A DNA stretch of 32,357 nucleotides from a virus (IMGVR_UViG_2675903665_000002), one strand, 5' to 3'; counted from the stretch's first letter, positions 751 to 31,124 are shown. Notes: a model not told the origin generated them from the letters alone. Made by a program: numbers and translations.

Positions 751-981
751 TCATGAGTAGAAGAAGTATGCCAGTTCTGCTTTTGAGCGCAGCCATTGTC
801 TTGTTTTACAGGCTTTAAAAAGCCCATTCATCAATACTTTACCTGGCATTTTGCGCTTACCTGTTAAGTGAGTCTGGATATAGTGACTCGTCGTTCCGGC
901 TTCCTGTGCGAAGGCTTCACGCTCATCCGGAGTAAGTGCAAGCCAGTGCTTTTTGAAATCGAAATGTCCGTTATCGCTCAT
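751..981 (-). CDS. Cro-like small HTH DNA-binding regulator
   Basis: 76 aa with a helix-turn-helix-like segment (EAFAQEAGTTSHYIQTHLTGKR). Divergent from the repressor-like gene across an operator cluster. Confidence 0.6.
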   Translation of the reverse strand: MSDNGHFDFKKHWLALTPDEREAFAQEAGTTSHYIQTHLTGKRKMPGKVLMNGLFKACKTRQWLRSKAELAYFFYS

Positions 982-1017: not shown

Positions 1018-1080
1018 TCACCCATAAGGTAACAAAAATCAAGGATAGTTACCCATGAGGTGCATTTACCTGTTGGGTAA
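1018..1080. promoter_or_regulatory. Divergent immunity-region operator cluster: three sites matching TTACC-N5-GGTAA
   Basis: TCACCcataaGGTAA at 1018-1032 (9/10), TTACCcatgaGGTGC at 1049-1063 (8/10), TTACCtgttgGGTAA at 1066-1080 (10/10). Lies between divergent genes 751..981 (-) and 1136..1720 (+). Confidence 0.7.
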
Positions 1081-1135: not shown

Positions 1136-1720
1136 ATGAAAAGTATCCAGGACGTCCGCAGGCAAAATCTCAACGACTTGATCGACCGTGAATTCAATGG
1201 TGTTCAGACGCGGATGGCAGAAAAACTTGGAACTCAGGCAAATCTGGTAAACCGCTGGGCTCTTGGCAAGAAGGTTATCGGCGACCAGGTTGCGCGAAAA
1301 ATTGAAGCTGCCGCCAATAAACCACGTAACTGGCTTGATATCGATCGCTCGCTTTCTCAGGAAGGTTTTCAGCCTGTCGGCCCAAGCGACATTGGTCAGC
1401 TGGCGGCTCACAACCTGGAACGCTGGATGAGCGAAAGCCGCGACCTTTCAACTCAGGGAAAACTTCACCGCGCATCCGGCGTCGCCCAGGTGACAATCAG
1501 CCGCCTGTTAAACAATGAGGTCAGTGTTTCCATTTCCACCCTGGAGAATGTTGCATCAGCATTCGGGCGTCACGGCTATGAATTACTGATTCACCCGCAC
1601 GACCCTGCGACCATCAACTATGACCGCTCGCGCTACGCATTGTTACCCGAAACCGAGAAAGCAAAGATCGAAAGTTACATTGAATTTGTCATCAACCAGA
1701 ACGAAAAAAACAAACAATAA
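1136..1720 (+). CDS. Phage repressor-like protein with two tandem XRE-type HTH domains; no LexA-like S24 peptidase domain recognised
   Basis: 194 aa. HTH-like segments near residues 20-60 and 110-150. No obvious SD upstream of the ATG, so possibly leaderless like lambda cI. Followed by an intrinsic terminator. Confidence 0.65.
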   Translation: MKSIQDVRRQNLNDLIDREFNGVQTRMAEKLGTQANLVNRWALGKKVIGDQVARKIEAAANKPRNWLDIDRSLSQEGFQPVGPSDIGQLAAHNLERWMSESRDLSTQGKLHRASGVAQVTISRLLNNEVSVSISTLENVASAFGRHGYELLIHPHDPATINYDRSRYALLPETEKAKIESYIEFVINQNEKNKQ

Positions 1721-1777: not shown

Positions 1778-1854
1778 TTACCTAATGGGTAATTTTTTTA
1801 ACTCATATCTATTGACATCAAACCAAATACGCATAATTATTACCTCAACGGTAA
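1778..1854 (+). promoter_or_regulatory. Early-left promoter (TTGACA 1812-1817, -10-like TAATTA/AATTAT about 1834-1840) flanked by two perfect operators
   Basis: TTACCtaatgGGTAA at 1778-1792 and TTACCtcaacGGTAA at 1840-1854; the second overlaps the -10/+1 region. Confidence 0.65.
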
Positions 1855-4431: not shown

Positions 4432-4731
4432 GTGAGAAAGTTAAGCCGACTTGAAAAATATCACATGAATAAGGTTTCAATGCGCAGTCCGTCAAAGATT
4501 GTCGCCGTTACTCCTGCGGCGATAGAGATCGAAAAACGCGCGATTGAAAGAGAGAAAAAAGGGCAGTTCCGCATTGCCGCTCACCTTTGGCTTCAGTGTA
4601 TGGATGTTGCTTCTGGTGATGTTGAGCGTGCAAGGATCGCGGTTCGCAGGGACCAATGTATCACAAAAGGTAACGGCCTTCGCCGTGGAGACTATAGCGG
4701 TATAGGATGTTGCGGGGTGGTTTATGACTAA
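4432..4731 (+). CDS. Hypothetical protein; overlaps the methyltransferase start
   Basis: 99-aa ORF with an 8-nt overlap with the downstream gene. Start uncertain (alternative ATG at 4462). Confidence 0.4.
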   Translation: MRKLSRLEKYHMNKVSMRSPSKIVAVTPAAIEIEKRAIEREKKGQFRIAAHLWLQCMDVASGDVERARIAVRRDQCITKGNGLRRGDYSGIGCCGVVYD

Positions 4732-5374
4732 GAAATACACACTAATCTATGCAGATCCACCCTGGGTATACCGGGACAAAGCCGCAGATGGTAATCGCGG
4801 TGCCAGTTTTAAATATCCGGTTATGAGTGTGATGGATATCTGCCGCCTTCCTGTGTGGGATTTGGCCGATGAAAACTGTCTGTTGGCCATGTGGTGGGTG
4901 CCAACACAACCACTCGAAGCGCTAAAAGTTGTTGAAGCCTGGGGATTCCGTCTGATGACCATGAAGGGCTTCACGTGGATAAAATGTGGTAGTCGACAAC
5001 CAGATAAACTGGTTATGGGTATGGGGCACATGACTCGCGCCAATAGTGAAGATTGCCTGTTTGCGGTAAAGGGAAAACTACCTACGCGCATTAATGCAGG
5101 GATCGTTCAGTCATTTACCGCACCGCGGCTTGAGCATTCAAGAAAACCAGATATCGTTCGTGAAAAACTTGTGCAATTGTTAGGCGATGTTTCTCGCATT
5201 GAACTGTTCGCCAGACAGACGTCTCATGGCTTCGATGTTTGGGGTAATCAGTGCGAAGACCCGGCAGTGCAACTACACCCTGGATACGCGTTGGATATTG
5301 CCGGATTAACAAATGCATTCAGCAATGCTCCGCTGTCACCAACAGACAACCAGGGGCGGGAGCGTGCAGCATGA
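4724..5374 (+). CDS. DNA N6-adenine methyltransferase, MT-A70-like
   Basis: 216 aa with the DPPW catalytic motif (IYADPPWVY) near the N-terminus. Confidence 0.8.
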   Translation: MTKKYTLIYADPPWVYRDKAADGNRGASFKYPVMSVMDICRLPVWDLADENCLLAMWWVPTQPLEALKVVEAWGFRLMTMKGFTWIKCGSRQPDKLVMGMGHMTRANSEDCLFAVKGKLPTRINAGIVQSFTAPRLEHSRKPDIVREKLVQLLGDVSRIELFARQTSHGFDVWGNQCEDPAVQLHPGYALDIAGLTNAFSNAPLSPTDNQGRERAA

Positions 5375-5619
5375 AGCAGATTATGGTTGCACACAACGGC
5401 GTCAGGTTTGAAGTCGTCATGGTTTTGACTAAGTACCGCAATGATGAGGTATTGCAGAGAAAAGAAACTGTAACTTACCGTTATAAACACCGAAGTTCAG
5501 CTGTTAGAAGATTACGGAAGATTACGGAAGAGCTAAAAAATGATCCTCATCGTGTTATTGAGGTAAAAGGCAACCCATATAAAATCACAACTTCAGTGGA
5601 GCTAAGACATATGCAATAA
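5371..5619 (+). CDS. Small hypothetical protein translationally coupled to the methyltransferase
   Basis: ATG overlaps the methyltransferase stop (ATGA). 82 aa. Contains a perfect tandem 10-nt duplication (ATTACGGAAG x2 at 5511-5530). Confidence 0.45.
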   Translation: MKQIMVAHNGVRFEVVMVLTKYRNDEVLQRKETVTYRYKHRSSAVRRLRKITEELKNDPHRVIEVKGNPYKITTSVELRHMQ

Positions 5620-5943
5620 AATCACGCCTGACGAATCGCGATTATCTCGCTATTGGTATTGCAGAGATTGCTGGACTCAGTGGCGCATGATTTGACAATG
5701 CCGCCAGAGCTATCGCATACTGACCGCACTAGAACTTCAAAGCGGTCACCCGCACCCGATAGCTTTGCGGCTTTTTTATGCCTGCAATTTGGCATAGTCA
5801 CATCCGTACAAAGGTCGGGTGGAGAGGCGTAATACAATACCCAAAAGGGGAATATGCCCGGAGCGTCTTTGAAGGCTCTAGTTGACACCCGATCACCAGC
5901 TACTAACTGGTGATTGCTAACTAAAACTTCAAAGGAGGTCATC

Positions 5944-6594
5944 ATGACCAGTCAACTCATCCCCGTATTCAACGGCACTATATCCAACGAAACCGCTCTT
6001 CTCGTTAATGCCCGTGATTTACACACTTTCCTCGATGTGGGTAAGCGATTTGCTTCGTGGATTGTCGAACGAATTGCTGAATATGGTTTCGTTGAAAATC
6101 AAGACTTTATGATTATTTCCCAAGTTCGGGAAAAAATAGGCAGAGGCCGTCCTGCAAAAGACTACCACCTAACCCTCGATACAGCCAAAGAGCTGGCGAT
6201 GGTCGAGCGTAACGAAAAAGGTCGTCAGGTACGACGCTACTTCATTGAATGCGAGAAACGTTTAAGACAACAAGAAACAAAAGTGGAGAAGGTCTTGTCA
6301 GGCTTCATGCCCGCCATTATGGAGGCGATCAAGCTGGAAGACAAAAAAGAATACAGCGCCCCACTGAAGCCCGGCTACCGCAGCCTGATTCACTCGCCGT
6401 CTGGTGTTCTTGGCCTGACGGAGAACTCACTGCTGATGAATCTGCTGAACCAGTTACAGGAAGACGGGCACGACGTATCGGGCGCGGCGGCGGAGCTGAC
6501 CACCATGTTCTGCTACATCGTTGGTGTGAGCAAATGCCTGCGTGATATCCAGACGCACGCGGAGTACATCAACGACAAGGCAGGGTTCTTCTGA
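5944..6594 (+). CDS. Phage antirepressor (Bro-N/AntA-like N-terminal domain)
   Basis: Perfect AGGAGG SD 7 nt upstream of ATG 5944. N-terminal region resembles the AntA/Bro-N antirepressor fold (...ARDLHTFLDVGKRFASWIVERIAEYGFVENQDF...). Confidence 0.7.
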   Translation: MTSQLIPVFNGTISNETALLVNARDLHTFLDVGKRFASWIVERIAEYGFVENQDFMIISQVREKIGRGRPAKDYHLTLDTAKELAMVERNEKGRQVRRYFIECEKRLRQQETKVEKVLSGFMPAIMEAIKLEDKKEYSAPLKPGYRSLIHSPSGVLGLTENSLLMNLLNQLQEDGHDVSGAAAELTTMFCYIVGVSKCLRDIQTHAEYINDKAGFF

Positions 6595-6640
6595 CAGAAC
6601 GGCGGCACAGGGATGTGCCTTTAAATAATTCTGTACAGAT

Positions 6641-6682
6641 TGCAGACTGTGGGTGAATAGCGTACTATTACCTTAAAGGTAA
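6641..6682 (+). promoter_or_regulatory. Promoter-like element with perfect operator upstream of the AT-rich two-gene operon
   Basis: TTGCAG at 6641-6646, 16-nt spacer, TACTAT at 6663-6668, then TTACCttaaaGGTAA at 6668-6682. Confidence 0.55.
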
Positions 6683-6724
6683 ACCTGTTTTTATTTTATA
6701 CCTGTAACTTACCGGAGATTAAAG

Positions 6725-7051
6725 ATGACAAAACTTGGATTCGTGATGAGAGGTCCGGTAAGAAGCGGAACTCATGCAAAGCGTAGCAAGAGTCGTATTT
6801 TTACTGGTAAGGTTGTAGCACGTAAATCAGCTATTGGCTCGTTCAATAGTGAAAATGCGGCATTGCGCCATATTTTTATCAGCACAAAGCCAAGAGCATC
6901 CGCTGATGTGCATACAATGTCTATTCCTATCACAAAGAATATAAAGCGGATAAAAAAGCTCTCATCTGCAGAATCAAAAGAGATATCTTTCCGCCAGCTT
7001 AACTCATTAGAAACGCATATGAAGGAAGAGGAATTCGATGTTTTTGAGTGA
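6725..7051 (+). CDS. Hypothetical small basic protein (108 aa), first gene of an AT-rich accessory pair
   Basis: GGAG SD 8 nt upstream of the ATG. AT-rich relative to flanking phage genes, with several AGA and ATA codons. Stop overlaps the start of the next gene. Confidence 0.6.
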   Translation: MTKLGFVMRGPVRSGTHAKRSKSRIFTGKVVARKSAIGSFNSENAALRHIFISTKPRASADVHTMSIPITKNIKRIKKLSSAESKEISFRQLNSLETHMKEEEFDVFE

Positions 7052-7550
7052 GTATAGCGGGAAGGTTATACCTACTGGTGAGTTTAAAACTGATGACTTT
7101 CTGATTTCGCTAAAAGATGCTTTTAAACAACACTGGCGTCATGGTCATCATCCTGATCTGGGAAAAGATACTCTTTTTGAAAGACCAGAGGAAGTATTAG
7201 GCTTCCATCTCAGAAAGGTTCATGTCAATATTGGTGAATATGCATCATATTCATACTCATGTACTGAACAGTGTTGGGATGAGTGGTCATATGGATTGAT
7301 TGATGAACAAGGAAATTACAGGCCAAAACCAACCAGTAACGCATATCTCATATATGCAGTCAATGAAATAAGAGATGCAGCCTTACTAGCTTATTGGGAC
7401 CCGCCCGCACACACCAAAGCTAACGCAAAAGTTTGGATGGATTCCGTATTGAATTTCACAAAATTATTTCATGAACGAACGAATACAGCTCCACTTAGTA
7501 GAAATGTTTATCCGTGGGATTATTCGTACAAATCCAAAAAGCCTGCATAG
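7038..7550 (+). CDS. Hypothetical protein (170 aa), second gene of the AT-rich accessory pair
   Basis: ATG 7038 with GAGG SD; overlaps the upstream gene by 14 nt. No family recognised. Confidence 0.6.
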   Translation: MFLSEYSGKVIPTGEFKTDDFLISLKDAFKQHWRHGHHPDLGKDTLFERPEEVLGFHLRKVHVNIGEYASYSYSCTEQCWDEWSYGLIDEQGNYRPKPTSNAYLIYAVNEIRDAALLAYWDPPAHTKANAKVWMDSVLNFTKLFHERTNTAPLSRNVYPWDYSYKSKKPA

Positions 7551-7631
7551 TAGTTTTTTATGGACGAAACAAAAGTCAGTGCTACACTCATTGACGCCAC
7601 ATTGAGGTGGTTTATAGATGGAAATTTCACA

Positions 7632-7793
7632 ATGAAAAAAGCATTTGCTGCACTGTTCGTTTTGTTGTCTCTGGTAGCTTCAACTCAGGCCTTTGCCGGT
7701 CGTTGTCAGCACGACAGCGACACTGCTGCTGACGGCTCCCGCTGCGGTGGGCGTTCTGCGGATTCCCGCCCGGGTGGCGGTGGCATTCGTTAA
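7632..7793 (+). CDS. Small secreted Gly-rich protein (53 aa) with N-terminal signal peptide
   Basis: MKKAFAALFVLLSLVASTQAFA signal-like N-terminus. ORF-track start at 7560 is probably too far upstream. Weak RBS. Confidence 0.4.
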   Translation: MKKAFAALFVLLSLVASTQAFAGRCQHDSDTAADGSRCGGRSADSRPGGGGIR

Positions 7794-7815
7794 AAACAAG
7801 GCCGCGAAAGCGGCC
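7791..7815 (-). terminator. Intrinsic terminator closing the long - strand structural operon
   Basis: GGCCGC-GAAA-GCGGCC hairpin; on the - strand it is followed by TTGTTTTTA. Confidence 0.65.
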
Positions 7816-7816
7816 T

Positions 7817-7832
7817 GTGACATGTCACACTA
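7817..7832. repeat. 16-mer GTGACATGTCACACTA, copy 1 (palindromic core TGTGACATGTCACA)
   Basis: Identical 16-mer recurs at 27852-27867. Both copies sit at a gene stop next to a - strand terminator, at the two boundaries of the structural operon. Confidence 0.6.
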
Positions 7833-8390
7833 CATTGATATATGATTCATAAAGTAGCTTAAAGATTTACTTCCCAGAAAAGAAATTTCTTTTCCTGGAT
7901 ATGTCGCAATAATTGAGCATGACTTATCCCCGTTAGAGGTAACAAATCCTGAATAACCTACTTGTTCTTTACCATTTTGTTGCTTGGCTAAAAAGTAGAG
8001 GTAGCTTATCTTTTTGCCCTCTGGGTAAAACTCTGCCAAACCAGTATCGGTGATTGAATATTTTATTCTCCCGCCTTGAGTAACGTTTTCCATCTCAAGT
8101 TTAGCTATGTCTTTTCTGTTGTATTCAGCATTGATTTTCCTTTCGAAATCAATGTTGTTTTCAAATGAGTAGGAAGCAACAGTCTGAATAGATGGGAACA
8201 CGTTTATCTGGATGCCTCCACAGTCGGCACAGGTATAAAGGTATGAATCAGATGGAATCCCCATAAAAGAAAACTGAGTTACCTTAAATTTATCGCTATC
8301 TCCAAAGTATTGAAGTTCGCATTTAACATTTTGCCCTGCAAAAGAAAATGCAGACATCAATATTGAAACAAAAAATATAATTGCCTTCAT
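7830..8390 (-). CDS. Secreted or lipoprotein-like accessory protein (186 aa), AT-rich
   Basis: N-terminal signal peptide MKAIIFFVSILMSAFSFAGQ. Last gene of the - strand operon. Composition differs from the neighbouring structural genes. Confidence 0.6.
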   Translation of the reverse strand: MKAIIFFVSILMSAFSFAGQNVKCELQYFGDSDKFKVTQFSFMGIPSDSYLYTCADCGGIQINVFPSIQTVASYSFENNIDFERKINAEYNRKDIAKLEMENVTQGGRIKYSITDTGLAEFYPEGKKISYLYFLAKQQNGKEQVGYSGFVTSNGDKSCSIIATYPGKEISFLGSKSLSYFMNHISM

Positions 8391-8392
8391 TA

Positions 8393-10945
8393 TTATTTAC
8401 CTAGCATGAACTGCGATGGTGGGATCAGAAAGTCGTTACCCTGCTCACGCTCAACACGGCGCTGATAACGCTCAAGAGAGCCTGGGTCAAGGGCATCTTG
8501 TATCCGGTTCAATATTAAACCATTCATCGCCGTACGAAGCCAGAACACGTTGAGGAATGGCGTATTGTCAAGTGCCGTGCGATACCAGTCACCCAAATCT
8601 GCATCCCCTCTCGTGGTCTGCTGGAGCAGCGTGATAATGCTGTCAGCGTTCGATGCTGCTGGCCCCATTAGCGACGTAACCGGCCCGGCCCCCATGCGGT
8701 TGACCTCGCCAAACATGAAGTCACCCAAGATGCCAAGACCGCCCCCCTGAGATGCGGCTGCGAGAAACGTCTTGGCATCTGCCGGGCGTGGTGTTTGCCC
8801 TTTCAGCATGAGTTTTGACTGCATGGAGATATAACCAAACATAGTCGCCCAGACAAAGAGGTTTGCAGCACCAAGGAAAGCCCCCTTCCCGTTACGTAGC
8901 AGCGCATTCGTCAGCGATCCGGTTTTCGACTCACCAAGCCCAGCAGGAATATAACCACGCCCGAATACTTCGCGTCCTAGTACGTTCTGCATGAAGCTTG
9001 CAGTGAACGATTTGTACTGACCAGCGAATCGTATTGCTTCCCCAGCCACCGTTCCTGGCACCGTGCCCATCTTCATAAACGCCTGCGTGCGATCGCCAGG
9101 CTCTGACATGGCGATATTCAGGCGGTCAAGGATGTAGCCGCGCAACTGCCCTTCCAATTGATCGCGTGCGTCAGCGATAGCGCGCTGCGTTGGTTTGATC
9201 CCCTTACTCTCTACATAACCGGCAATCACTTCGTCAGGCACGCCGCGGATGCCGCTGGTCGTCATGAACTTACGACCTTCGCTATCGGCCATGTCCATGT
9301 TGCGAAAAATTTCCCACTCACGTTCGCCAATACCGTGCAGATCCAGCACGCGTCGCAGGTCTTCCGGTAGCCGCGCATGAGACTGGTCAGCATTCTTTGC
9401 AAGCCAGTTGGTTATCATCATGGCGTTGCTGTTGCGACCGCTCTCGGTCCAGAAGTTCATGAGGTTGTACTTAAAGAAAAGCTGCTGCGCGCGACCAAGC
9501 TTTCCATTCAGCGTGTCATCACCAGATATGCGCCGGATGATTTCCTGCGTCATGGAGTCGGAATAAACTCCGATAGAGGAAAGGATCTCTTTCTGCTCCG
9601 CGCTGTTGTAACGCGTGAAGCGGCCTCTCATAGCACCAAGCAACGCCTGCATAAAATTCTGCCCTTGGTAGCGCATCTCGGTAGCGGCGATAGGCACGTC
9701 GTTAAACGATGAGATTACCGCGCCACCAAGTTGGCTCATACGCAACCAGCCGCGTACAGCCGCCGACGCATTGGCCCAGCCTACGCTGCCAGGAATATTT
9801 AGCGAGCCGTCAACCTGCGGCATTACGGTACGGTTAATGCGACGCACCTTCGTCATGTAGTCAGCCAACGCTGCCGGTCTTCCGGATTTGCTGATATCTT
9901 CAGCAATGGCGTCCGTCAGGTACTTAAACATGTTCTGTGGGTTAGTGCCCAGTACGCGCATCATGCCCGTTGTGCGGGCAGCGCTGTTTAAGCCACCAAA
10001 CAGCGCTTCTCGCAGGCTGCCGGTGCCGAATTGCTGGTTGTACTCGTGCCACGAGATACCATCTTTGAAGTGCAAAATTCGCTCTTGGCTGGCGCGTTTA
10101 GCTGCGTTCGCCGATCCCTTAAAGCCATTCATCCAATCGGGCTTTTCAGATGTAAGATGCACGCCGGAAGCCAGCCCGTTATAAATGTTACGCGTGAACT
10201 GCTCGCGGTCAGCCACGCCGTCAAAAGTGCGCTCATCAAGGCGCGGGAGAATAGCATTTCGCCATGCTTCATAACCTGCGGCGCGGATCTTCATGATGTC
10301 GTGTGACTGGCGCACTATATAGCCCGGCTCTTTGCGTATCCATGCCCCGGCGCGGTTCTCATCAATGCGCGCAGTTTCCTGCCATTTCATGATGATTTGT
10401 GCAGCGCTTACGGATTGCTTTGTCATACCGTCAGTTGACTGCCCGCGCCCTATGCGCCACATTGCATCGGCAATTTCCCGGTCATTGCTGCCGCTGGCGA
10501 TGAATTGCACCAGCCCGGCACGGTCAAAATCGTAGTTGATACCGGAATGATACTTGCCGCGCAGTTGCGCCACCTCCGAAGATACCGACCGGCGGGCGCC
10601 GGTACGCGCATCGTTGCGGCCAACCAGCATTGCTTCAAGCCCGATATCCGGGCGGTCTTTCCAGATAGTACGAAGCTCTCTAAGTCGTTGTGCGGCAATA
10701 CGGGCGTTGATTGCCTTATTGCGAGCCTCAATCTGTTTTGCCAGCATATCGGCATTGCTCAGTTCTTCCGCTGCGCGCATCGCGGCCTCTTCCAGAGACA
10801 GCGCCTCATTGGTCGCCAGAATTCGCCTAGTGGTGTCGTTCATGTCACGCACCAGCGACTCCATCTCATCGGAAGAAAGCTCGCGACCAGCGGCAGCATT
10901 TACACTGCGCTCGCACTGCGTCAAAAATTCGTTTGCTGCCATCAC
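8393..10945 (-). CDS. Large internal virion / DNA-ejection protein (850 aa)
   Basis: Position at the end of the internal-core protein block. Start overlaps the upstream stop (ATGA). Confidence 0.55.
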   Translation of the reverse strand: MMAANEFLTQCERSVNAAAGRELSSDEMESLVRDMNDTTRRILATNEALSLEEAAMRAAEELSNADMLAKQIEARNKAINARIAAQRLRELRTIWKDRPDIGLEAMLVGRNDARTGARRSVSSEVAQLRGKYHSGINYDFDRAGLVQFIASGSNDREIADAMWRIGRGQSTDGMTKQSVSAAQIIMKWQETARIDENRAGAWIRKEPGYIVRQSHDIMKIRAAGYEAWRNAILPRLDERTFDGVADREQFTRNIYNGLASGVHLTSEKPDWMNGFKGSANAAKRASQERILHFKDGISWHEYNQQFGTGSLREALFGGLNSAARTTGMMRVLGTNPQNMFKYLTDAIAEDISKSGRPAALADYMTKVRRINRTVMPQVDGSLNIPGSVGWANASAAVRGWLRMSQLGGAVISSFNDVPIAATEMRYQGQNFMQALLGAMRGRFTRYNSAEQKEILSSIGVYSDSMTQEIIRRISGDDTLNGKLGRAQQLFFKYNLMNFWTESGRNSNAMMITNWLAKNADQSHARLPEDLRRVLDLHGIGEREWEIFRNMDMADSEGRKFMTTSGIRGVPDEVIAGYVESKGIKPTQRAIADARDQLEGQLRGYILDRLNIAMSEPGDRTQAFMKMGTVPGTVAGEAIRFAGQYKSFTASFMQNVLGREVFGRGYIPAGLGESKTGSLTNALLRNGKGAFLGAANLFVWATMFGYISMQSKLMLKGQTPRPADAKTFLAAASQGGGLGILGDFMFGEVNRMGAGPVTSLMGPAASNADSIITLLQQTTRGDADLGDWYRTALDNTPFLNVFWLRTAMNGLILNRIQDALDPGSLERYQRRVEREQGNDFLIPPSQFMLGK

Positions 10946-21941: not shown

Positions 21942-22234
21942 TCCTGTTCACTGGCCTCTTTGGCCATCTTCAAATACTGTTCAGGGCAATGCGCCATAAC
22001 GCGCTGAAACAGTTCCAGCGCCAGATTGCGTTGCCCCTCATTAAATGCCATTGCCATAGCGTCCATCGGTGAGATAGCGGAAAACACACGGCCTTTCTCC
22101 AGCACCGACCAGACAACGCGACGCCCCTGTTCACTGCTCATGACAAAGCGAATGTCATCAATTTCACGCTGTGCCATGTCACGTTGCTTACGGGCGTTTT
22201 CTTCTTTCAGTTGATCATCTTCGTAATCTGTCAT
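21938..22234 (-). CDS. Hypothetical small head-module protein (98 aa)
   Basis: Overlapping start/stop with both the portal and scaffold genes. Confidence 0.45.
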   Translation of the reverse strand: MTDYEDDQLKEENARKQRDMAQREIDDIRFVMSSEQGRRVVWSVLEKGRVFSAISPMDAMAMAFNEGQRNLALELFQRVMAHCPEQYLKMAKEASEQE

Positions 22235-23910
22235 TGTGATTGCCCACCCTGACCACTAACTGCATTCGCCATAGCTGACAAAACACTCGGATCCGAAGTT
22301 TTAGCTTCGCTTAGCGTCTTGGCACCCTGTGCCGCCGCCATCCCCATCGCCATCATTTGTTGCTGCTGTTGTTGCTGTGCCCGTTGCTGGCGAGCCTGCT
22401 CAACCTGTTCCTGCGGAACAATGACGGTTGGAGACACTCCGGACATATCAGCGAATGCATCGATCGCCTGATCAACGTTGAGTTTGTCGAGAGCTTCTGG
22501 TTTCGCTTGCGCAAGTTGACCAATGAAGTTAACCGTGGACGCCAGACTGGACAGGCCGATAGACTTCTGCGCCTGAGCCATGACGGAAATGTATTCGACC
22601 TTCAGGGGCATGCCTTCCATCGCGTCAGGCGGTGGCGGCAGCATGTTTTTGCGCACCATCATCGAGAAAGCGCGGTCAATGAGAGGATTAAGACATTCGT
22701 CGTTCAGACGCTCCAGAACCGGCCCCAACATCAGAAGTTTTTCTTCTTTCATTTCGATCACCGCTTCAACAGGCATCGAGCGGGTATTGATGTTCTGCAA
22801 CATCATGAACAGATCGACAAAGTAGGCGCTGTTAATGATTTGACGAGTGTCCTGAATGTCTGCCACCAAATCTGCTGTACTGGGGTTAACCAGATAAGCA
22901 GGCCTGAAGCCATCCTGACCAGTAATCTGATCGATATACGTGATGTCGCCAGGAAGAAGGGAGGCGCGCTGATTCTTGAGGGAAGTCGGAGCAACCATCG
23001 GCGGATTGGTGGCTTTATCAATCAACTGCGACTTGCGCTTCTGGAGAAGCTGCAATGCCTTAACAGGTCCAAGCGCCAGCATACCCGGGCATGATGATCC
23101 ATAAACATCTTCGCCGTTAACTTCCCAGCGCGGAGCCATAATTGGAAACTCATCGAATCCGGACTCACGCAACAACTTGTCGTTATCGCCACCAACCTCG
23201 TAATAAACCGATTTGAATGGCTTGTTCTTGCTATCCAGCTTCGATGTATCGCGGTCAATGTTCGGGTAAACCGAATGCATCACTTCGATCCACTTCTCGT
23301 AGGTGCCGCTTTCCCACATGCTTTTTACGGATTCGCTGACGTTATTTAGCCCGAACTCCTGAACAAGCTGACGAACAGTCATAGAGAACTTGCGAAAACA
23401 GGTGTCAACACTGCCACGAGGTGAGTTAGCCAGGTAGTAACTGCCTATCGGGAATGGCATTGTGCGAATGATGTCCTCGTCATCCTCCAGCACTGCCATT
23501 GCACCAGTGCTGTATGTGCCGAGGCTTCCGTATAACTGCGGAAGAGACTGGTAGAGATTCGACTTATTGAACATATCGTTCATGCGGTTCTGAACTGCCT
23601 CAAGCCACAACTTAACAGGGCCATAATCCATCATTTCAGGATCTGGCGTAGCCAGGCGAAACCACGGACGCGCGGGGCTTGTGATGCCTGACATCATGCC
23701 GCTGGCGAGAGTGCGCGCCGCCATAGTCCCGGTCGAATCAATAATGCGTGTATTGCGCCGATCGTTACGGTTGGCCTCAGAAGTCAGAAAGCGGGAACCA
23801 CGCGGGTTGATGTAATCACTCAACTCGCGCCAGTGCGGCTCGAACGACTGACGCTCGCTTTCAAGTTGTGCGAACTGTTTGTTCAATCGCTCTTTAGTTG
23901 TTTCCGCCAT
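22231..23910 (-). CDS. Portal (head-to-tail connector) protein
   Basis: 559 aa. N-terminal region resembles the podovirus head-to-tail connector family. Gln-rich C-terminal tail. Sits upstream of scaffold and capsid. Confidence 0.8.
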   Translation of the reverse strand: MAETTKERLNKQFAQLESERQSFEPHWRELSDYINPRGSRFLTSEANRNDRRNTRIIDSTGTMAARTLASGMMSGITSPARPWFRLATPDPEMMDYGPVKLWLEAVQNRMNDMFNKSNLYQSLPQLYGSLGTYSTGAMAVLEDDEDIIRTMPFPIGSYYLANSPRGSVDTCFRKFSMTVRQLVQEFGLNNVSESVKSMWESGTYEKWIEVMHSVYPNIDRDTSKLDSKNKPFKSVYYEVGGDNDKLLRESGFDEFPIMAPRWEVNGEDVYGSSCPGMLALGPVKALQLLQKRKSQLIDKATNPPMVAPTSLKNQRASLLPGDITYIDQITGQDGFRPAYLVNPSTADLVADIQDTRQIINSAYFVDLFMMLQNINTRSMPVEAVIEMKEEKLLMLGPVLERLNDECLNPLIDRAFSMMVRKNMLPPPPDAMEGMPLKVEYISVMAQAQKSIGLSSLASTVNFIGQLAQAKPEALDKLNVDQAIDAFADMSGVSPTVIVPQEQVEQARQQRAQQQQQQQMMAMGMAAAQGAKTLSEAKTSDPSVLSAMANAVSGQGGQSQ

Positions 23911-23924
23911 TTCAATGACTCCGG

Positions 23925-24131
23925 TTACTGACCAAGCAGCGTTTTACCGCTGGTATTAGCGGTTGATGTGTCGCCCTGAGAACCGGTAAGCAGCGTAGAA
24001 CTACGACCAGCAGCAGCGCGACGGCGACGTGTTTCTTCGTCGCGGGCATCAACAACGGCGGCATCCTGCTCCTGTGGTGCTGCCTGAACTTCTGGTGTTG
24101 CAGGCACTGATGGTGAGCTACCCATGCACAT
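23925..24131 (-). CDS. Small hypothetical protein (68 aa) upstream of the portal gene
   Basis: ATG at 24131 with GGAG SD 8 nt upstream. The alternative overlapping frame 23912..24151 looks less protein-like. Confidence 0.35.
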   Translation of the reverse strand: MCMGSSPSVPATPEVQAAPQEQDAAVVDARDEETRRRRAAAGRSSTLLTGSQGDTSTANTSGKTLLGQ

Positions 24132-24199
24132 ATCAATGACTCCGTACGCAATTAAATTATTACCAATTTAACCACATATGATTTATTTATCGTAGAAGG

Positions 24200-24236
24200 T
24201 TGACATTTAACGCGTGAATTATTACCTTTCGGGTAA
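24200..24236 (+). promoter_or_regulatory. Promoter (TTGACA at 24200-24205) with perfect operator for the tRNA transcription unit
   Basis: TTACCtttcgGGTAA at 24222-24236 positioned where a -10 element would be expected. Confidence 0.55.
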
Positions 24237-24558
24237 CCAAAGAGCTCATTCCGGTTACTAACCTGACTGGCTTGTCGTTAAATTAAACAGGTGGAGTGAG
24301 CTTTTATTTTGAGCAGTACGGCGTATGGCACATGCGCCGATAGCGGTCTGGATACGTTTAAGGGGCACCCTCCCTTGCTCGGGCAAACGAACCAGGTAGC
24401 CGGAATGTGCAAGTCGAGCGGTTTTATTCCGCGCACGGGGATTCACCATCCCGGCGATTCGGTGTGACGCCTCGGAAGAGACGAGGGTACAACGATGAGA
24501 GCATTTATGGAGCCGCGACAAAGTGTGGCGCCTTAACAGGCTAAGTGCTCTCAGCGTT

Positions 24559-24635
24559 GTGGCATTAGCTCAGTTGGACAGAGCAACCGCCTTCTAAGCG
24601 GTTGGTCGCAGGTTCGAATCCTGCATGCCACGCCA
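24559..24635 (+). tRNA. argU: tRNA-Arg (anticodon UCU), argU-like
   Basis: 77 nt. 7-bp acceptor stem GTGGCAT/ATGCCAC, D-arm GCTCAGTTGGACAGAGC, anticodon arm ACCGC-CTTCTAA-GCGGT (anticodon TCT), T-arm GCAGG-TTCGAAT-CCTGC, discriminator G plus CCA. Near-identical in arrangement to E. coli argU. Confidence 0.95.
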
Positions 24636-24678
24636 GAATCACGCCTAAGGACCGTGATGCCAGAAGTTCCAGGTGCTT

Positions 24679-24721
24679 GGCGGTGATGGTTTCCCTTGAA
24701 GGACTATCACCGCCCTTTTTA
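24679..24721 (+). terminator. Intrinsic terminator downstream of the tRNA
   Basis: GGCGGTGAT...ATCACCGCC stem followed by CTTTTTA. Confidence 0.65.
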
Positions 24722-24798
24722 CAGCAGGACGCCATTGCGATGACTTCATGCTGTAAACCCGTACAGCCACGGAAGGCATAACTCATTGCTTCCAGTTC

Positions 24799-24822
24799 GC
24801 CCGGTTCGCCGGGCATTTTTTT
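24799..24822 (+). terminator. Intrinsic terminator (GCCCGG-TTCG-CCGGGC plus T8)
   Basis: 6-bp GC stem with TTCG tetraloop followed by ATTTTTTT. Confidence 0.8.
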
Positions 24823-24838
24823 GCTTGATGACCGCAAA

Positions 24839-24857
24839 TTACCTTAAAGGTATAATC
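24839..24857 (+). promoter_or_regulatory. Near-consensus operator (TTACCttaaaGGTAT, 9/10) fused to TATAAT, directly upstream of the membrane-protein gene
   Basis: Same TTAAA spacer as the 6668 site. TATAAT at 24851-24856. Confidence 0.5.
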
Positions 24858-25676
24858 ATGAAAAACTTCAAGGTAATTAGCATGTTTGAATCGTTTAAAG
24901 AGCTGTTTTTATCTACTGCCAATACTGCCGTGAATCGAGCCAAAAACCCTGTGCTTGGTGCTTTTGTTATGTCCTGGTGCGCCTTCAACTGGAAATCAAT
25001 TCTTTATCTATTTTTTAGCAAATCAAACATAATAGATAAAATTTCATATATCTCAGATAACAGCACATGGAAAACTGTTATGTTTTATCCATGCTTATCT
25101 GTAATTGCTATCTGCTGCCTATTACCATGGGTAAACAATATCATTAACGTATGGCAAGCAAAGCCTCTTGATAATAATGACTCAATCGAAAATCACCTGA
25201 AGGCAAGAAAAATCCAGCGTGAAACCAGACTGCAGAGGTTATTGGCTAAAAAAGATGTTACATACGACAAAGTTAAGACTGGCGCGGAAAAAGACATCCA
25301 AGAGATGAAAGAAGAGATTATTCGATCAAAGAATAGTATGGGGGAATTGACTGCTGAGTTGAAAGCTAAAGATGACGAATTGAGATCCGCCAGTGCTCAG
25401 TTAGCAGCTCTAAATCATTCATTAAAAGAGATATCGGAAACTCTTGGAAGAATGAATGAGGCATATAAGACCCTCCAAAATGATTTCGACGAATACAAAC
25501 TCAAATACCCTGAAAAATCTCAAATAAAAAGTCTTGCACTTGGCAACGGCCAAACAATTAGCAACTTTTTGGAGCAACACAACTTATCCGGATTAAAATC
25601 TGGTAAGCCAGACGTTTTTAATAACTTTGGTGTTCTATCTGGATTATCAGGTTTCGAGGATAAAAATAAAGACTAA
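24858..25676 (+). CDS. Accessory membrane protein: two predicted TM helices followed by a long coiled-coil; AT-rich
   Basis: Hydrophobic segments VLGAFVMSWCAFNWKSILYLFF and VMFYPCLSVIAICCLLPWV, then a charged heptad-like region. Opposite strand to the structural genes. Start may be ATG 24882 if TATAAT is the -10. Confidence 0.6.
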   Translation: MKNFKVISMFESFKELFLSTANTAVNRAKNPVLGAFVMSWCAFNWKSILYLFFSKSNIIDKISYISDNSTWKTVMFYPCLSVIAICCLLPWVNNIINVWQAKPLDNNDSIENHLKARKIQRETRLQRLLAKKDVTYDKVKTGAEKDIQEMKEEIIRSKNSMGELTAELKAKDDELRSASAQLAALNHSLKEISETLGRMNEAYKTLQNDFDEYKLKYPEKSQIKSLALGNGQTISNFLEQHNLSGLKSGKPDVFNNFGVLSGLSGFEDKNKD

Positions 25677-27148
25677 GCATATGGATCGTACTCGGTAAGC
25701 GCCTTGCCTTGCTGGTTCTGCTGCCCGGGAAGTCGCAGGCGCTTCGACACCGGGAAAGCAAACGTCAGCAGCAGCGCATCGCCTTTACCCGGCGAACGCC
25801 CAAGTCGCTCTTTGATATCTTCCTTCGGTTCGATAACGATTTTACCGTCCACTCGAACTTTGTACTCTGCCGCCGACAGGTCGTCTGCAGTTTCCTGGTC
25901 ATCCAGCATGCCGCCCAGCCTCAGCCATGTCTTACATGAGTTGAACATCTCCCCACGCTTGTTGAGCATCTGCGGGTCAGTAGACGCGCCACCGAACGGA
26001 ACAAGTTGCCATGTACGACCCCAGCCGTCACCGATTGACTTCAGACCAGTTCCGTAACCGAAGTCGATGAACACTGCGTCAGCCTGGTACTGGTCTTCAA
26101 AGTCAGCGATACGCTTCGCCATAATCAGATCGTCAGTGGTCTTGTTGCCAGTCCACAGCACCTTACTGTGCAGCCCCTGCCGCAGGTATATCACAGCGTC
26201 ATCAACGCCTGAGTATGCCGGGTCAACGCCGATTATCACCGGAGCATGTGCAACCTGCGCAGCGGTGACCACCCGTTTCATTGCCTCGTCAGTAAGTCCG
26301 GTAGGGATAAACTGCAATTCAGATGCATCCGGGAATATGCCGCGCACACGGATTTTAACGAAGTCGCTGTCTTCCCCGTAGTCATCAACCCATTTCTGCA
26401 ACTGCTGTTTGTTGGTGCCTTCCACCGTCCGGCTGTCAATCTGCGCAGTTTTCCAGCGGTGTTTATATTTGCGGAAACATTCGCGGAAACGTCCGGTATT
26501 ACGCGTCGGGTTTCCGAACGCCACCCAGATAATCTCAGTGTCTTCGTCCGTTAGCGCACCCTCGGCAACTTCCCACACCAGATCCGCAATGTTCGACGCT
26601 TCATCGAATACCACGATGATGCGTTTGCGCTCGTTGTGTAGTCCGGCGAATGCCTCAGTGTTGTGCTCAGACCAGGGTATTGCGTCAGCTCGCCACCGCT
26701 TGTCGTGTCCAGGATCATTGCTGTACATCGCGGTAGCGGTACAGGTAAACCAGTCTTTCGTGATAGCAAGGTTCGACCACTTGATAATTTCCGGCCAGGT
26801 CTTCGTTCGTAGCTGGTTGTCGGTGTTGGCGGTCACCACAACCTTACAATCCTCGCAAGTGGACATGCCCCAGTTGATCAGCATTGAGATGAATGCGGAT
26901 TTACCAATACCGTGACCCGAAGCGCGTGCCAGCATAAGCGGCTGATAGCGCGTCTCTGGATTCTGCAGGTGATCACGTATCTCTCGGAACGCATCAGCCT
27001 GCCACTGACGTGGACCGGTGGCATGTGCCAGTTCAGTCCCATCTTCCCCCCACGGGAACGCATAGAGGGCATAGCCAAGCGGATCGTGAGTGAACCCTGC
27101 AATATCCTCGATTAACTGCTCTTCAGGAGATAACGCTGTATCTGTCAC
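25673..27148 (-). CDS. Terminase large subunit
   Basis: 491 aa. Walker A-like SGHGIGKS in the N-terminal ATPase region and an acidic nuclease-type C-terminal region. Start overlaps the terS stop. Confidence 0.85.
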   Translation of the reverse strand: MTDTALSPEEQLIEDIAGFTHDPLGYALYAFPWGEDGTELAHATGPRQWQADAFREIRDHLQNPETRYQPLMLARASGHGIGKSAFISMLINWGMSTCEDCKVVVTANTDNQLRTKTWPEIIKWSNLAITKDWFTCTATAMYSNDPGHDKRWRADAIPWSEHNTEAFAGLHNERKRIIVVFDEASNIADLVWEVAEGALTDEDTEIIWVAFGNPTRNTGRFRECFRKYKHRWKTAQIDSRTVEGTNKQQLQKWVDDYGEDSDFVKIRVRGIFPDASELQFIPTGLTDEAMKRVVTAAQVAHAPVIIGVDPAYSGVDDAVIYLRQGLHSKVLWTGNKTTDDLIMAKRIADFEDQYQADAVFIDFGYGTGLKSIGDGWGRTWQLVPFGGASTDPQMLNKRGEMFNSCKTWLRLGGMLDDQETADDLSAAEYKVRVDGKIVIEPKEDIKERLGRSPGKGDALLLTFAFPVSKRLRLPGQQNQQGKALTEYDPYA

Positions 27149-31047: not shown

Positions 31048-31124
31048 TTACCCCTGAGGTAATTAAAAACCACATAAGACACGAAATCAATAGATTTTAG
31101 AATATTTTATTACCTAACGGGTAA
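31048..31124. promoter_or_regulatory. Two perfect operators between the P-like gene and the downstream nuclease-like gene
   Basis: TTACCcctgaGGTAA at 31048-31062 and TTACCtaacgGGTAA at 31110-31124. Confidence 0.65.

Follow-up and report, generated by a model that had tools for sequence, protein, structure and literature searches.

The window analysed here is the whole 32,357-nt stretch of viral DNA IMGVR_UViG_2675903665_000002, which is from an epsilon15/phiV10-like temperate podophage of Escherichia coli, genus Uetakevirus. Between the terminase gene terL and the portal gene it carries a plus-strand cassette that would consist of a strong promoter of its own, in which an immunity operator is embedded, followed by a short A-rich leader and then by a 264-codon gene for a predicted membrane protein with a long helical stalk. 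The reading that we put forward, tentatively, is a native slot cassette that is expressed as a repressor-gated early pulse and encodes a membrane competition factor. The elements of the cassette and its neighbours are as follows.

22231..23910, minus strand: portal gene
24559-24635, plus strand: tRNA-Arg(UCU), in the same orientation as the cassette
24799..24822, plus strand: G+C hairpin and T-run, GCCCGGTTCGCCGGGC ATTTTTTT, from the terminator scan
24828..24856, plus strand: predicted sigma-70 promoter ATGACC-17-TATAAT (-35 box 24828-33, -10 box 24851-56)
24840..24852: candidate immunity operator, perfect palindrome TACCTTAAAGGTA, in the promoter spacer
24863..24875: weak second operator-like site AAACTTCAAGGTA with 2 mismatches, in the leader
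24882..25676, plus strand: coding sequence (CDS) of the cassette, 264 aa, a phrog_4780 member; annotated as a 272-aa form from 24858
25673-25676: CTAA, in which the convergent stop codons of terL and the cassette gene overlap
25673..27148, minus strand: terL

A preliminary description of this region had reported an AT-rich gene on the opposite strand between the terminase and portal genes, convergent with terL and beside a tRNA, and this layout was confirmed. The GC content is 31-41% over 24800-25700 versus 51-58% in the flanks, terL and the portal gene both lie on the minus strand, and the open reading frame (ORF) adjoins the tRNA-Arg(UCU) gene and shares its stop codon bases with terL. The terminator scan found no plus-strand terminator downstream of the cassette gene before terL. 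A similarly tight stop-to-stop junction was observed in BUCT711, EC.W1-9, L006, L097 and L098, and all six Uetakevirus-type cassettes lack a terminator before terL, with CDSs that overlap or are 1-13 nt apart. The flanks of the cassette match phiV10, the O157 typing phages and many E. coli prophages with 96-100% identity.

The first coordinate given earlier for the region, 24839, is not a gene start. The RefSeq protein WP_000787773.1 (272 aa) starts at ATG 24858, one base past the -10 box, and relatives have CAGAAAAA instead of CATGAAAA at this position. All homologs begin at the codon that corresponds to M9 (24882), with AAGGT 7-8 nt ahead of it. Because 24858 is located upstream of the probable transcription start, predicted at about 24862-24864, and the homologs start at M9, the best start is 24882, not 24839 or 24858, which gives a gene at 24882..25676.

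Predicted immunity operators and the cassette promoter

The cassette promoter matches the sigma-70 consensus at 10 of 12 positions. It follows the hairpin and T-run at 24799..24822, which are the second terminator of the tRNA unit and form the left edge of the cargo slot. The near-consensus operator that had been noted in this promoter is in fact the perfect palindrome TACCTTAAAGGTA at 24840-24852, and it overlaps the -10 box by 2 bp. The right half of the weaker AAACTTCAAGGTA site doubles as the Shine-Dalgarno sequence (AAGGT, 24870-74); this site is not kept in other cassettes.

The palindrome is strongly enriched in the window. Seven copies of TACCTTAAAGGTA with up to 2 mismatches are present versus 0.47 expected, and ten TACC-N5-GGTA sites versus 0.19 expected; the two perfect full copies are located in the cassette promoter and at 6669. 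Other sites are arranged around a cI-like gene.

751..981, minus strand: cro-like gene
1019..1079: tripartite right operator (OR) CACCCATAAGGTA, TACCCATGAGGTG, TACCTGTTGGGTA, between cro and the cI-like gene
1136..1720, plus strand: cI-like helix-turn-helix repressor gene
1779..1853: two left-operator (OL)-type sites flanking a TTGACA promoter, 3´ of cI
24200..24235, plus strand: tRNA-unit promoter with TTGACA at 24200-05 and the operator TACCTTTCGGGTA (24223-35) in the -10 position

The OR sites start at 1019, 1050 and 1067 within the 154-bp gap between cro and cI, and the OL-type sites at 1779 and 1841. Further TACC-N5-GGTA sites occur at 24223 in the tRNA promoter, at 6669 in front of a two-gene unit, and at 31049 and 31111 before a DUF1064 gene. 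The same operator layout is seen in Klebsiella phage BUCT711 and Salmonella phage SPN1S, the repressors of which are homologous; the lysogenic-conversion genes of SPN1S (gtrA and acyltransferases) carry no operator site. From the excess of sites and their distribution over OR and OL, we conclude that the palindrome is the likely binding site of the phage repressor and a genus-wide immunity operator, and, by analogy with lambda, that Cro would bind it as well. With a dimer on the site between the -35 and -10 boxes, RNA polymerase should be kept from using the promoter.

The operator of the cassette thus belongs to the OR and OL class and is placed to occlude RNA polymerase, as expected of an immunity-regulated early gene. 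Because it is located in the core promoter, in a layout that is kept over deep divergence, we predict that the cassette is repressed in the lysogen and expressed only without the repressor. Expression in the lysogen, which was implied when the protein was first described as a membrane sensor, is not supported, as the immunity operator overlaps the -10 box.

Three further features were observed around these operators. A 16-nt inverted repeat (24834-24849 / 24866-24881, 88% complementary), which is not kept in other cassette alleles, overlaps the promoter and leader. In transcripts that read through from upstream, its first arm, 24834-24849, would pair with the Shine-Dalgarno sequence ahead of 24882 and mask it, and transcripts from the cassette promoter would miss this arm. 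A LexA-like CTG-N10-CAG at 24751-24766 was dismissed, with ~8 such sites expected by chance in the window and no conservation in relatives. Downstream of ant, a promoter TTGCAG-17-TACTAT (window 6640-7550, plus strand), which has the perfect TACCTTAAAGGTA at 6669-6681 directly after its -10 box, precedes two overlapping genes, 6725..7051 (108 aa, phrog_5933) and 7038..7550 (170 aa, a weak YafO_toxin match with E 7e-4). The unit 6725..7550 may be a repressor-controlled, toxin-antitoxin-like cargo.

Predicted architecture and family of the stalk protein

The predicted protein comprises a membrane hairpin of two transmembrane (TM) helices, a helical stalk and a variable tail. Residue numbers follow the 272-aa form unless counted from M9.

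24948..25151, plus strand: predicted membrane hairpin, TM1 (31-54), short acidic loop, TM2 (72-98)
25152..25544, plus strand: predicted cytoplasmic helical stalk extending TM2, from an AlphaFold2 (AF2) single helix and a heptad scan
25545..25673, plus strand: predicted disordered variable C-terminal tail with a short basic K-x-K-D type motif at its end

Hydropathy supports the two N-terminal TM helices of the preliminary description. TM1 is marginal (Kyte-Doolittle about 1.2) and has a conserved Lys, and TM2 is strong (up to 2.15). The invariant residues of the membrane hairpin are R, G, N-W and P. An initial AF2 model from 21 close homologs was poor, with a predicted local distance difference test score (pLDDT) of 64. 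With 32 diverse family members aligned, the mean pLDDT rose to 81 and reached 84-98 across the membrane module and stalk; the membrane hairpin alone gave 84-94. Counted from M9, the model has an amphipathic helix (2-19), a kinked TM1 (23-45), a short helix (50-60) and an unbroken helix (63-221) in which TM2 runs into the stalk, followed by disorder at 219-264. The tail has a pLDDT <50, and K271 is nearly invariant. Among the 32 members, Lys and Arg residues number on average 3.8 before TM1, 2.4 in the loop, which is net negative, and 4.9 after TM2. The topology predicted from these features has both the N- and the C-terminus inside, and the stalk would therefore be cytoplasmic. The heptad pattern is unbroken for ~80 residues, and the modelled stalk of ~130 residues is probably an oligomeric coiled coil ~20 nm long. 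The coiled-coil tail of ~150 aa that was first described is thus retained in part: a long helix of ~130 residues with ~80 residues of heptads is predicted, but ~45 residues are disordered.

The protein matches phrog_4780 over its full length (residues 9-272, E 2.3e-137), and its N-terminal module is common to phrog_13369 and phrog_35327. All three families are of unknown function, and membership therefore tells nothing about what the protein does. A search with the N-terminal module returned 1,212 representative clusters at E<=1e-3. All 177 close homologs are enterobacterial and annotated as 'hypothetical proteins'. Conservation covers residues 9-167, with 66 invariant columns among 21 sequences; past ~167 the homologs are hypervariable and cannot be aligned except for the short basic C-terminal motif. 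The nonsynonymous divergence (dN) of 0.2-0.35 with saturated synonymous divergence (dS) indicates that the protein is under purifying selection. Two truncated or interrupted alleles of the window type were also observed, P0027 (163 aa; 29 member sequences), which ends near residue 163 and retains the conserved module only, and the frameshifted L016. Such alleles are either in decay or show that the distal part can be dispensed with.

Searches against characterized proteins gave no match to a known system. For the protein and the 32 family members alike, Pfam, NCBIfam and PADLOC returned coiled-coil noise only; in PADLOC-DB 2.0 these were just SMC-, LmuB-, JetC- and DndD-type coiled-coil segments at 11-21 bits. 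No fold match was found in PDB or BFVD, and tblastn against 50,697 phage records recovered three uncharacterised homologs only. Neither tblastn nor the PDB and BFVD comparison linked the protein by sequence or fold to SieA, SieB, Imm, Sp, Cor, Llp or gp15. The architecture had been called typical of superinfection-exclusion (Sie) or abortive-infection (Abi) membrane sensors; the resemblance in architecture holds, but sequence, profile and fold kinship to known Sie, Abi or defence proteins was not found. A literature search, with the original epsilon15 and phiV10 genome papers outside its scope, returned nothing on the protein or a Uetakevirus operator regulon, and nothing specific on the protein accession, Uetakevirus transcriptomes or TM plus coiled-coil defence genes. 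WP_000787773 is absent from the supplements of the DefensePredictor paper. The LF82 prophage 'Gally' was rejected as a Uetakevirus; it is P22-like and inserted at torT-torS.

Exchange of the cassette and its genomic surroundings

The cassette occupies a site of variable content. Among 80 IMG/VR loci with terL 98-100% identical to that of the window, the slot between terL and the portal gene could be delimited in 78. A Phage_gp49_66 protein, as in phiV10 (p03), fills the slot at 36 loci, an unknown 140-aa protein at 22, a 110-aa protein at 5 and a 115-aa protein at 1. The stalk-protein family is present at 11 loci: nine have the window type, one of them frameshifted, and two have a 246-aa allele, the C-terminus of which is unrelated to the window type although the backbones are near-identical. 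A Tad2-like anti-Thoeris gene occurs at 1 locus, other or unclassified ORFs at 4, and 4 slots are empty. Of 5,426 complete E. coli genomes, the slot flanks are present in 905, the window-type cassette in 37 and the 246-aa type in 5. Because near-identical backbones carry other cargo or none, the cassette gene is, on this genomic comparison, a dispensable and exchangeable accessory insert.

Every slot cargo at the 78 loci starts right past the hairpin with its T-run (24799-24822). Cargos other than the stalk-protein family lack their own promoter, have the ribosome-binding site directly after the T-run and end 105 nt before terL; in phiV10, the spacer between the slot cargo and terL contains an annotated terminator. 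Among the slot cargos, the stalk-protein family alone has its own promoter, and it alone abuts terL with no terminator.

Individual slots and replicons added the following observations. The Tad2-like gene (98 aa; PF11195, E 3e-24; Thoeris anti-defence) is located in the terL-portal slot of L036, which has a near-identical backbone; it has no promoter of its own and begins right after the hairpin. In SPN1S, the slot cargo (L100 2190-2605, minus strand) is preceded by the same hairpin and has a TM-like N-terminus, and the record annotates two small ORFs there. An intact TM plus helix protein was rejected for this cargo, as the translation frameshifts after 28 codons; a decayed membrane cargo or a sequencing error is possible. 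The E. coli 'plasmid' entries NZ_CP079771.1 and NZ_CP079768.1 of PLSDB (41,027 bp) are circular Uetakevirus genomes that carry the cassette with 99.6% identity. Instead of true plasmids, these are probably phage genomes that have been excised or are replicating.

The regulatory layout extends beyond close relatives. The promoter-operator-leader architecture is kept in 8 cassettes from 5 genera. Uetakevirus-like prophages in Rahnella and in an Advenella metagenome-assembled genome contain a distant subfamily with 23% identity overall (34-41% by tblastn over the N-terminal module), which occupies the same slot on the opposite strand and abuts terL; a genome scan with a narrower alignment gave two loci. 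The upstream plan of this subfamily, with the hairpin, the T-run, TGATGACT, CACCATAAAGGTA, TATACT and an A-rich leader, is the same in EC.W1-9, BUCT711 and the 246-aa E. coli allele. Judged from these comparisons, the regulatory layout goes back further than the protein sequence.

Lambdoid and P22-like phages also carry homologs, in their early regions. L010, a P22-like prophage of Klebsiella, has an intact but orphaned cassette operator; its own OR uses TTAGA-N5-TCTAA. In the lambdoid phage KO-TP1, the operator has decayed to TACCATAAGATAC, and a remnant of the Uetakevirus terL 3´-end is retained past the stop codon, which indicates that the cassette was exported from a Uetakevirus. Of the still more distant relatives, those in SSU5-like phage-plasmids are located between parA/replication and tail genes and have their own promoter and terminator, those on IncF plasmids adjoin a DUF1778-GNAT toxin-antitoxin pair, and one relative is located among the housekeeping genes of a chromosome.

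The neighbouring tRNA unit carries the same operator. Its promoter-operator layout is kept in phiV10, EC.W1-9, BUCT711 and SPN1S. AGA accounts for four of the eight Arg codons of the cassette gene, with one AGG, and is absent from terL, the portal gene and the major capsid gene, which suggests that tRNA-Arg(UCU) serves the AT-rich cargo more than the structural genes. A leader of ~320 nt (24236-24558, plus strand) separates the tRNA-unit promoter from tRNA-Arg. It has no Rfam match, and the Rfam scan of 23900-25900 identified the tRNA only. Across E. coli, Klebsiella and Salmonella Uetakeviruses, this leader comprises near-invariant blocks and variable inserts closed by conserved helices; RNAalifold predicts 68 pairs, 6 with compensatory changes, and the z-score for the single sequence is -2.5. 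The leader is thus probably a structured non-coding RNA that is co-transcribed with the tRNA, and the annotated minus-strand ORF in this interval, PhiV10p04, may be spurious.

Past the tRNA, the region 24636-24822 (plus strand) contains terminator-like hairpins at 24679-24714 and 24799-24814 with a conserved inverted repeat (24718-24757) between them. Most slot cargos rely on read-through of both hairpins, and ~170 nt of this region moved with the cassette into KO-TP1 and L010. Elsewhere in the window, the interval between the DNA methylase (4724..5374) and ant (5914..6594) contains two short ORFs only. Compared over window positions 5250-8400, relatives carry an integrase at this interval (BUCT711, L099 11328-16866, and L005), and BUCT711 also a lysis cassette. 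The window copy may have lost the integration and lysis modules or may carry them elsewhere.

Possible function and comparison with known systems

A membrane competition factor under immunity control could work as follows. In an established lysogen, the cI-like repressor bound to the palindrome would occlude the cassette promoter. Without the repressor, upon non-immune infection or induction, the cassette would fire at once; Cro and late transcription arriving from terL would then turn it down, leaving a short early pulse during which the active transcript would run antisense into terL. The product would form a helical hairpin in the inner membrane with both ends cytoplasmic, and TM2 would continue into the helix of ~130 residues and the disordered tail. 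The membrane-proximal module may be an anchor or an effector, and the hypervariable distal stalk and tail may provide specificity in superinfection exclusion or in an abortive-type block of incoming phages or mobile elements. On plasmids, or in phages with another repressor, the gene would be constitutive and would act as a classical protective moron. Near-identical backbones have unrelated C-terminal alleles or lack the cassette altogether, which indicates that the variable part is not tuned to the carrier phage. A competition role can also be argued, with less confidence, from the carriage of this lone gene on many kinds of mobile elements.

Several points weigh against this reading. No homology ties the protein to exclusion or defence; the Pfam, NCBIfam and PADLOC hits are coiled-coil noise. 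Shut off in the lysogen, the gene could not protect it, which makes a defence function less convincing in the native context, and the Tad2-like anti-defence gene in the slot of one phage makes an early-helper role a live alternative. The predicted topology is uncertain because TM1 is only marginally hydrophobic and contains the conserved Lys. Repressor binding and the transcription start are predictions from sequence, and the E. coli, Klebsiella and Salmonella Uetakeviruses share one operator specificity. A bolder form of the competition reading would make the family, with more than 1,000 clusters, a new exclusion or defence class with a hairpin, a ~20-nm stalk and an exchangeable tip; the Uetakevirus member, with its antisense transcript, would be an 'early gatekeeper' that closes the cell to competitors only while the phage develops. 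We regard this form as doubtful.

The main alternatives differ in when the protein would act and for whom. It might be a prophage-constitutive membrane sensor or effector, a moron of the Sie/Abi type that protects the lysogen, with the operator providing partial damping that keeps a potentially toxic protein scarce. The own promoter, the low GC content, the lone position on the opposite strand and the hypervariable C-terminus fit such a moron, as do homologs in heterologous prophages, plasmids and a chromosome; a cognate repressor is not expected at these sites, which would make expression constitutive and, evidently, tolerated. However, the perfect operator located between the -35 and -10 boxes, overlapping the latter and kept over deep divergence, and the lack of operators in the true lysogenic-conversion genes of SPN1S make this explanation unlikely. 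A helper of the phage's own early development, which would take over the host at the membrane, for instance by blocking division or by altering the envelope or a membrane protease, or would neutralise a membrane-associated host defence, and have no role against other phages, would share its immunity-controlled early expression with the wiring of lambdoid early accessory genes such as kil and cIII. The anti-Thoeris gene in the slot of one phage points in the same direction, and the proximal stalk, which is extremely conserved across host genera, fits a conserved host partner. The gene is nevertheless dispensable and freely swapped on near-identical backbones, its distal part is hypervariable, and relatives are found on IncF plasmids and a chromosome, where a lytic helper makes little sense; such a helper is a serious rival, though likewise unlikely.

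The absence of a terminator in all six Uetakevirus-type cassettes, compared with the 105-nt spacer that other cargos keep before terL, would be explained by a regulated antisense unit that delays packaging-gene expression through terL, with the protein being secondary. This is very unlikely given the strong purifying selection on the protein, the terminators with which homologs elsewhere end and the cassette-free phages that manage without an antisense unit of this kind. A lysis protein is the least credible explanation. Two TM helices with a charged C-terminal part could suggest a class II holin or antiholin, and a membrane anchor with a coiled coil superficially recalls Rz and hence an i-spanin-like protein. 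The Pfam, PHROG and NCBIfam scans found no holin or spanin family match, and homology to a known lysis protein, named at the outset as evidence that would overturn an exclusion role, was not found. BUCT711 has a full lysis cassette elsewhere (two holins, an endolysin and an Rz-like gene) in addition to the cassette gene. At the locus itself there is no o-spanin partner or embedded ORF; the gene is located outside the lysis region, its control is predicted to be of the immunity type and not late, and the coiled coil is predicted to be in the cytoplasm.

If the regulatory interpretation holds, this accessory gene would break the rule that morons are on in the lysogen, being active only briefly after infection or induction. 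Superinfection and phage competition in the early post-infection period have been little studied in temperate phages. The analysis also provides an anatomy, a topology model and a regulatory logic for a large unannotated family of phages, phage-plasmids, conjugative plasmids and chromosomes. The terL-portal slot takes exchangeable cargo and can be searched for defence and anti-defence genes, and TACC-N5-GGTA maps the putative repressor regulon of the genus.

Classical morons, such as lambda bor and lom and those of the HK97 type, are on in the lysogen as a usual rule. The cassette resembles them in its location between conserved genes, its deviant base composition, its own promoter and its exchange among phages, but lacks its own terminator in the native slot and is predicted to be off in the lysogen. 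Imm and Sp of T4 are superinfection-exclusion membrane proteins, and imm is an early gene. SieA of P22 is a prophage-expressed superinfection-exclusion membrane protein (PMC10883804). Like SieA, Imm and Sp, the cassette is a small single phage gene with a predicted inner-membrane product that is dispensable for the carrier; unlike these proteins, to which it has no sequence or fold similarity, its product has a long predicted cytoplasmic stalk. The immunity operator in its promoter sets it apart from the prophage-expressed sieA, whereas its predicted early expression, outside the prophage state, is shared with T4 imm.

In one validated E. coli defence protein, a membrane anchor is followed by a central coiled coil (DUF4041) and then by a nuclease domain at the C-terminus (10.1101/2022.05.12.491691). 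The cassette protein has the same order of N-terminal anchor, coiled coil and C-terminal part and is also encoded by a single gene on mobile elements, but it contains neither DUF4041 nor a nuclease domain. With the lambda PL genes, which target host functions and in some cases do so at the membrane, the cassette shares predicted direct repressor control, an early pulse and a non-essential role; it differs in standing alone in the late operon on the opposite strand. In lambda, kil and cIII are non-essential accessory genes of the PL/OL early operon that encode small soluble or amphipathic peptides. By analogy, we infer that the cassette works most like an early-expressed exclusion gene such as T4 imm, with wiring that resembles that of the lambda PL accessory genes.

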